A program made the translations under genes and the position numbers. A stretch of DNA of 43,051 nt from Escherichia phage ECO104 4-5-2, in sequence record OR844702; one strand, written 5' to 3'. Numbering within the stretch: position 1 is the first letter of the stretch; each line of letters starts with the position of its first letter. The notes beneath the pieces were generated by a model, which saw only the letters and a program-made list of their open reading frames with translations, was not told the DNA's origin and searched no databases. This document shows positions 1 through 77 of the stretch, in pieces.

Positions 1-77
1 GAACAGTACAAGAGGCTAGTGTGGAAATTATCAACGGGCAGTTACATAGCGAGAGCATTGCACGAGTACCAGTTTCC
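1..77. repeat. 77-bp exact duplicate of the window end (42975..43051); circular-contig assembly overlap
   Basis: Bases 1-77 are identical to 42975-43051 and lie inside the primase reading frame, so this is an assembly or circular-permutation overlap rather than a biological terminal repeat. Confidence 0.85.

Follow-up and report, generated by a model that had tools for sequence, protein, structure and literature searches.

A direct repeat of 77 bp is found at the two ends of the 43,051-nt contig of Escherichia phage ECO104 4-5-2 (OR844702; the whole stretch is referred to as the window). The question raised by this locus is whether these ends are the physical ends of the phage DNA or a product of sequence assembly and, in the latter case, where the physical ends are located. 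The explanation which we hold with high confidence is that the window was assembled with k = 77 from the complete genome of a Slopekvirinae phage, whose direct terminal repeat (DTR) has probably been collapsed and whose ends probably lie near position 37125.

Window positions 1–77 and 42975–43051 were identical in 77 of 77 bases. A script run over every k from 1 to 2000 returned 77 as the sole length at which the prefix equals the suffix, and the leading 30-mer of the window was found at positions 1 and 42975 only. Direct comparison of the bases inward of both copies revealed mismatches and a sharp edge; as the match stops beyond the overlap, the duplication is sharp and does not form part of a longer repeat that has degenerated. 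The pair of 77-mers was also the only long exact direct repeat that the repeat search detected in the window (family D4). According to our own arithmetic, the chance of an exact 77-nt match between prefix and suffix is 4^-77, or approximately 4e-47. After the redundant second copy (42975–43051) was trimmed, 42,974 bp of unique sequence were left, and both the exact end overlap and the unique genome size of about 42,974 bp reported in the initial annotation hold true.

The contig is opened inside a primase gene. On the trimmed circle, an open reading frame of 259 aa starts with the ATG at 42648, which is preceded by ...AAGGGGCTGGTGCAATC, runs across the join, and terminates with the stop codon at 451–453. 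Codon 110 starts at window base 1, and the overlap encodes residues 110–135. The 5' part of the gene (42648–43051, plus strand) encodes a Cys-rich, zinc finger-like N-terminus (C23, C24 ... C43, C45, and C48, as read from the sequence) and is cut by the contig end, and the 3' part (1–453, plus strand) contains the TOPRIM region and forms one continuous frame together with 42648–42974. The encoded protein matched PHROG 47 ("DNA primase") with an E-value of 1.5e-19 as well as two more primase PHROGs. Pfam Toprim_2 was matched by residues 161–227 with 22.5 bits, narrowly above the gathering cutoff of 22.1. Judged by its sequence, the protein appears to combine both features of DnaG/T7 gp4-type primases, namely the TOPRIM domain and the N-terminal Cys-rich zinc motif. 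In a tblastn search, 667 phage records were matched, 660 of them by a single alignment spanning at least 80% of the protein; where the matching loci carried an annotation, it was usually "DNA primase". The PHROG 47 and Toprim_2 matches and the 660 homologous loci confirm that the break lies inside the primase gene, and the continuity of the frame over the overlap, which had been claimed along with it, is established from 42648 to 453. The truncation of the primase that had been expected from a linear treatment of the contig occurs as well: the 5' fragment (42648–43051) runs off the end, and the linear ORF list displays the 3' part only as a false, GTG-started ORF (19–453).

In the record of Escherichia phage vB_EcoP_PAS7 (OQ921331.1), the primase locus (4555–5480) is annotated not as one primase but as two "hypothetical proteins" (4555–4800 and 5010–5480). 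A frameshift or an insertion may be the reason for this split, or else a gap in the annotation of the record.

All long ORFs of the window are encoded on the plus strand, and no tRNAs were found in it. The primase gene is followed by genes for a DnaB-like replicative helicase (434–1708) and DNA polymerase and, further downstream, by those for a single-subunit RNA polymerase (859 aa, 11772–14351) that matches the annotated RNA polymerases of phiKDA1 and PAS7 and closes the DNA-metabolism block. The order continues with portal, scaffold, capsid, tail tube, internal virion proteins, tail fiber, the small (TerS, 30732–31031) and large (TerL, 31046–33123) terminase subunits, spanin, endolysin, and the tailspike (35688–37046), which is followed by a non-coding region of about 570 bp and the early genes from 37616 onward. 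Primase and helicase are encoded by separate genes, as in phiKMV/KP34-type phages. By its layout, the phage is a T7-like podovirus of the KP34/phiKDA1 type with a genome of approximately 43 kb, and belongs to the Slopekvirinae (Autographiviridae).

Three other Slopekvirinae, Enterobacter phage phiKDA1 (Koutsourovirus) as well as the Klebsiella phages KpV475 and KPPK108.1 (both Drulisvirus), share the gene order and the unidirectional layout of the window and possess a separate primase gene 5.5–7 kb from the left end, but belong to other genera and show little nucleotide similarity to the window outside a few genes. The closest annotated relatives are PAS7 and Escherichia phage vB_EcoP_P64441, with approximately 79–84% identity over the aligned parts. 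Both are syntenic with the window, whereas megablast alignments cover only about 20–47% of the query, and the TerL gene is uninterrupted in both. Both genomes entered the database as circular records that begin at arbitrary positions.

Members of the Autographiviridae have linear genomes with a DTR on either side, and these DTRs are often deleted in short-read assemblies (PMC10438801). In the window, the predicted ends are located in the non-coding region between the tailspike gene and the first early ORF (37616–38212), which spans 37047–37615 on the plus strand and also harbors sigma70-like early promoters. A search in distant mode with the segment 36950–37700 revealed a conserved core (approximately 37052–37203), the counterpart of which is located at the very ends of many Drulisvirus records. 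Among the distant Drulisvirus matches listed for the block at 37.05–37.2 kb, 20 of 34 were situated within about 400 bp of the end of the record, and in KpV475, KPPK108.1, and KPPK108.2 the core match falls under an annotated repeat_region. The relatives' records are linear, with annotated DTRs of 243 bp in KpV475 (1–243 and 41959–42201) and 244 bp in KPPK108.1, and an exact left and right repeat of 267 bp in phiKDA1.

The first bases of KpV475, KPPK108.1, and phiKDA1 (CCTCACCC..., CTCACCC..., and CCTCACCC..., respectively) align to window position 37125 or 37126. At the right ends of the relatives, the transition from unique sequence to DTR falls within a block that is conserved in the window, TTATTATACTTACGCGAGGCCCTC/CCTCACCCGACC (here and below, a slash marks the boundary). 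The corresponding end motif, TTATTATACTTACGCGAGGCCCTC/CCTCACCC, occupies 37101–37132 on the plus strand of the window; its boundary between 37124 and 37125 is the predicted left end and, at the same time, the predicted start of the right-hand DTR copy. The window itself reads ...CGCGAGGCCCTC/CCTCACCC... at this position. PAS7 carries the end motif, too. For the other edge of the repeat, the transition from DTR to unique sequence of both KpV475 and phiKDA1 aligns to window 37351–37353 (...GGGCGCA/TGCTTGCCTATTTTGT). The right edge suggested by KPPK108.1 (37278) was down-weighted, as the region is gapped and contains indels, in favor of the concordant phiKDA1 and KpV475 edges. The end motifs that phiKDA1, KpV475, and KPPK108.1 have in common with the window can be written as ...ACGCGAnnCCCTC/CCTCACCC... 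and ...GGGCGCA/TGCTTnCCTnTTTTG.

The resulting DTR is predicted to comprise about 228 bp (37125–37352, plus strand), with a right edge that is good to a few bp; its coordinates are based on 60–93% identity to phages of other genera. This interval has boundaries homologous to those of the known repeats, is non-coding, and occurs in a genome with a T7-type terminase. It is preceded by the tailspike stop codon and 78 nt; on its other side, sigma70-like promoters occupy a stretch of about 260 nt ahead of the first early gene. The layout of phiKDA1 is alike, with the tailspike, a 91-nt gap, the 267-bp DTR, and the early genes. Whereas the records of phiKDA1, KpV475, and KPPK108.1 hold both DTR copies (243–267 bp), the window contains only one. 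Apart from the 77-mer, no second long repeat that could represent a two-copy DTR was found in the window, as is expected if the DTR has been collapsed. On these homologies, it seems likely that a DTR of approximately 228 bp has been collapsed at 37125–37352 and that the virion DNA would measure about 43,202 bp (37125–42974 plus 1–37352). The true ends are probably located upstream of where the contig ends, at a distance of about 5.9 kb. Re-orientation of the genome to its true left end, as initially recommended, can accordingly be directed to window position 37125, which is an end predicted by homology and not an observed one.

Other candidates for the physical ends were rejected. The coordinates of the PAS7 record are no guide, as the record is flagged circular and was opened at a CDS. 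The ends of the record of Shigella phage Buco (MK562503.1) were dismissed as termini because their 127-bp repeat is a k-mer overlap and the end motif is found at 42363–42396, so that the record ends are not the physical ends. Finally, a cluster of breaks at 36932–36974 lies inside the tailspike ORF, 150–190 bp upstream of the end motif. It is formed by four fragmentary contigs from sister assemblies, each of which has a terminus here, in the 3'-terminal part of the tailspike gene, and not at 37125. The cluster may reflect strain variation in this variable, receptor-binding tailspike gene, or could be a coverage effect near a terminus.

If the DNA were packaged by a headful mechanism (circularly permuted and terminally redundant), or if the genome were a circular replicon, there would be neither fixed ends nor a DTR at 37125–37352. 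Assembly of permuted genomes likewise yields circles that carry k-mer overlaps (PMC8116208), and both PAS7 and P64441 were deposited as "circular"; these flags, though, look like assembly conventions, P64441 even retaining a 127-bp overlap. The terminase points in the other direction. Across 607 aa, the spliced TerL (608 aa) shares 89.5% identity with the TerL of phiKDA1, whose record carries the exact left and right repeats described above, which argues for the same packaging chemistry. Moreover, the window retains, at the syntenic position, the two motifs that bound the DTRs of phiKDA1 and KpV475, and DTR-flanked linear genomes characterize the family (PMC10438801). Packaging without fixed ends is improbable in view of these data, and a linear virion DNA with a collapsed DTR is the reading pursued here.

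As a surrogate for read mapping, independent assemblies that span the junction of the window were analyzed. The nearest public record is that of Salmonella phage S.Kent 1-2-1 (OR850875.1; 42,603 bp, unannotated), an unverified contig from wastewater in Turkey with the SPAdes-style clone name NODE_3_length_42603_cov_10.9. A 4-kb query spanning the junction matched this record with 100% identity and in one piece. The junction is also crossed by OR848392, OR844876, and OR847098, which gives four contigs in all (99.9–100% identity). S.Kent 1-2-1 is colinear with the window over the whole genome at 98.7–99.98% nucleotide identity, and both group I introns (see below) are identical. Window 26132–43051 corresponds to 1–16920 of OR850875.1, 1–17560 to 16844–34403, and 18095–26208 to 34490–42603. 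S.Kent 1-2-1 is likewise a circular assembly with an exact 77-bp end overlap, but was opened at window position 26132 and not in the primase gene; its overlap equals window 26132–26208, within the gene of a 1244-aa internal virion protein. As an overlap of equal length is found elsewhere in this 99%-identical genome, the length originates from the assembler and the position is arbitrary. The two genomes differ in their unique length (42,526 bp in S.Kent 1-2-1 vs. 42,974 bp in the window), and S.Kent 1-2-1 does not contain window 17561–18094 (534 bp), in place of which 86 bp are found.

Fragments with 99–100% identity to the window were filed under the names Listeria phage LM 4-11-1 and 4-14-1 and Escherichia phage ECO121 2-1-1 and ECO26.1 3-1. 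These records (OR844xxx–OR849xxx) are flagged UNVERIFIED_ORG and originate from one wastewater study, in which Salmonella phage names were also given to near-identical fragments. That a genome of the coliphage type is found under the label of a Gram-positive host suggests contamination or the carry-over of one phage between lysates rather than a host range that includes Listeria.

These data also bear on the view that the 77-bp repeat is a genuine biological DTR and that the virion DNA physically begins at window position 1 and terminates at 43051. The repeat is exact, direct, and placed at both ends of a genome-length contig from a DTR-bearing family, and CheckV-like tools would label it "DTR". 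Such a terminus, however, would be located inside the primase coding sequence and would split an essential gene, whereas the DTRs of the relatives are non-coding, 243–267 bp long, placed between the tailspike and the early genes, and align to 37125–37352 instead of 1–77. In addition, 77 is a documented k-mer peak (PMC8116208). Since OR850875.1 reads through the site and has its own 77-bp overlap at another position, this view is effectively refuted, and we assign it next to no probability. A misassembled circle, be it a false join induced by a repeat, a chimera of two strains, or an incomplete or concatenated contig, is conceivable insofar as repeats can cause a de Bruijn assembler to close a false cycle and related strains (95–98% variants) co-occur in the sister data sets, but its probability is negligible, given that the 77-mer is found nowhere else in the genome, that the join produces a full-length primase which aligns to its homologues without gaps, that the independent assembly is colinear over its full length save for one indel (534 bp vs. 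86 bp), and that gene content and order from the early genes to the tailspike are those of complete relatives of 42–44 kb.

We consider it almost certain that the 77-bp overlap is an assembler k-mer artifact and that the phage DNA carries this sequence only once. In the CheckV study, the length distribution of contig DTRs has maxima at the assembler k-mers of 55, 77, and 99 bp, and the assembler breaks a cycle at a random location, whereby a repeat of length k is left (PMC8116208, Extended Data Fig. 3 legend). The suggestion in the initial annotation that 77 is an assembler k-mer size agrees with the peak at this value. Like the known k-mer "DTR contigs" (55, 77, 99, or 127 bp), the window has genome length and an exact overlap (k = 77), and is broken at an arbitrary position within a gene; it differs from them in nothing material, except that the template was here most likely a linear, DTR-flanked genome or a concatemer. 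For the contig of the window, we infer a SPAdes-type assembler with k = 77.

According to the proposed mechanism, the phage reads would have formed a closed cycle in the de Bruijn graph of such an assembler. This cycle would have been cut at an arbitrary point, in this case at primase codon 110, so that the last 77 bases repeat the first 77; the phage DNA itself would contain no such duplication and an intact primase gene (259 aa). Closure would be possible because the linear virion DNA carries the same direct repeat at both termini and is replicated via concatemers. As reads could not be told apart by the repeat copy from which they stem, the two copies would be collapsed into one that joins the right end to the left end. 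The description of the window as the circular assembly of a complete genome can be retained for the assembly, in view of the exact overlap and the junction-spanning contigs, and should not be extended to the molecule, as the family packages linear DNA with DTRs.

Two group I introns scored above the Rfam gathering score, one in the large terminase gene and one in the DNA polymerase gene. The terminase intron (RF00028) was detected with 65.4 bits at 31551–31804. These Rfam coordinates were set aside, as they are about 63 nt off the exon junctions defined by homology. Comparison with the uninterrupted TerL genes of PAS7 and P64441 placed the intron at 31616–31866 (251 nt), with exons at 31046–31615 and 31867–33123. 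The 5' exon ends with T and the intron with G, with an in-frame TAA downstream of the 5' splice site. Splicing at these positions is predicted to restore the sequence ...LLIPDD/IETTKNG... and a TerL of 608 aa without an internal stop codon. The intron is absent from the TerL genes of PAS7, P64441, and phiKDA1. Copies with 91–95% identity were found in the TerL genes of several KP34-like phages of Klebsiella and Acinetobacter, where the genes are annotated only as split terminases.

The intron in the DNA polymerase gene (3366–4093, 728 nt; T at the end of the 5' exon and G at the end of the intron) was matched by Rfam at 3356–4042 with 51 bits, compared to a gathering score of 50. It splits the gene of the C-terminal DNA polymerase between the residues homologous to 76 and 77 of the P64441 protein; in phiKDA1, both the TerL and the DNA polymerase gene are uninterrupted. 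The intron contains an HNH_3 ORF of 180 aa (3468–4010), which probably encodes a homing endonuclease. Another small HNH_3 ORF (17577–17828) was observed in a segment of 534 bp that separates the scaffold gene from the capsid gene (17561–18094). In S.Kent 1-2-1, 86 bp take the place of this segment, so that the two genomes are polymorphic for the presence of a free-standing HNH endonuclease. In phiKDA1, an HNH gene is found at the position that matches this ORF.

Further repeats were observed. An intergenic module of about 130 nt occurs three times (5648–5784, 39102–39238, and 40935–41074), with 66–78% identity and in each case just upstream of a gene start. A further repeat pair (39248–39287 and 41081–41120) is situated beside these modules, which may be promoter/terminator modules of the phage RNA polymerase or regulatory RNA modules. 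An exact 36-nt repeat (38734–38769 and 39051–39086) contains a near-consensus sigma70 promoter (TTGACT-17-TATAGT), and a 31-nt repeat with 90% identity (37571–37601 and 38214–38244) contains TATAAT and lies directly upstream of early ORFs. Both the 36-nt and the 31-nt repeat are probably early promoters for the host RNA polymerase.

For practical purposes, one 77-bp copy should be trimmed to obtain the 42,974-bp sequence, and the genome rotated to start at window position 37125. In this way, the primase is not reported as two truncated fragments or as the false 19–453 ORF, and the overlap is not mistaken for a terminal repeat of biological origin. For contigs of this kind, the flag "DTR, complete" certifies the completeness of the unique sequence and not that the termini are real. 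With a single copy of the predicted repeat of about 228 bp in the window, the unique length would fall short of the true genome length by the size of this repeat. The k-mer overlap artifact also persists in deposited relatives: exact end overlaps of 127 bp, 127 being another k used by SPAdes, are found in the "complete genomes" of Buco and P64441 (PQ847473.1) and are of the same artifact type as the overlap in the window. The phenomenon as such is already known; the finding is correct but ordinary and of value for curation only, and the 77-bp overlap itself holds nothing novel.

Any novelty would concern the genome that bears the overlap. [quoted passage not shown] Megablast alignments of the two halves of the window with PAS7 showed approximately 80–82% identity over about 22–47% of the query, which suggests an overall similarity below 70%. 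The phage may represent a new species, and possibly a new genus, of Slopekvirinae associated with E. coli and Salmonella, in which two essential genes, those of TerL and DNA polymerase, are split by group I introns that the nearest annotated relatives lack, and the motif ...ACGCGAGGCCCTC/CCTCACCC... at 37125, which is conserved across genera, may be a terminase cleavage signal common to the whole subfamily. Taken jointly, these two proposals are tentative, and we would sooner expect that they do not both hold.
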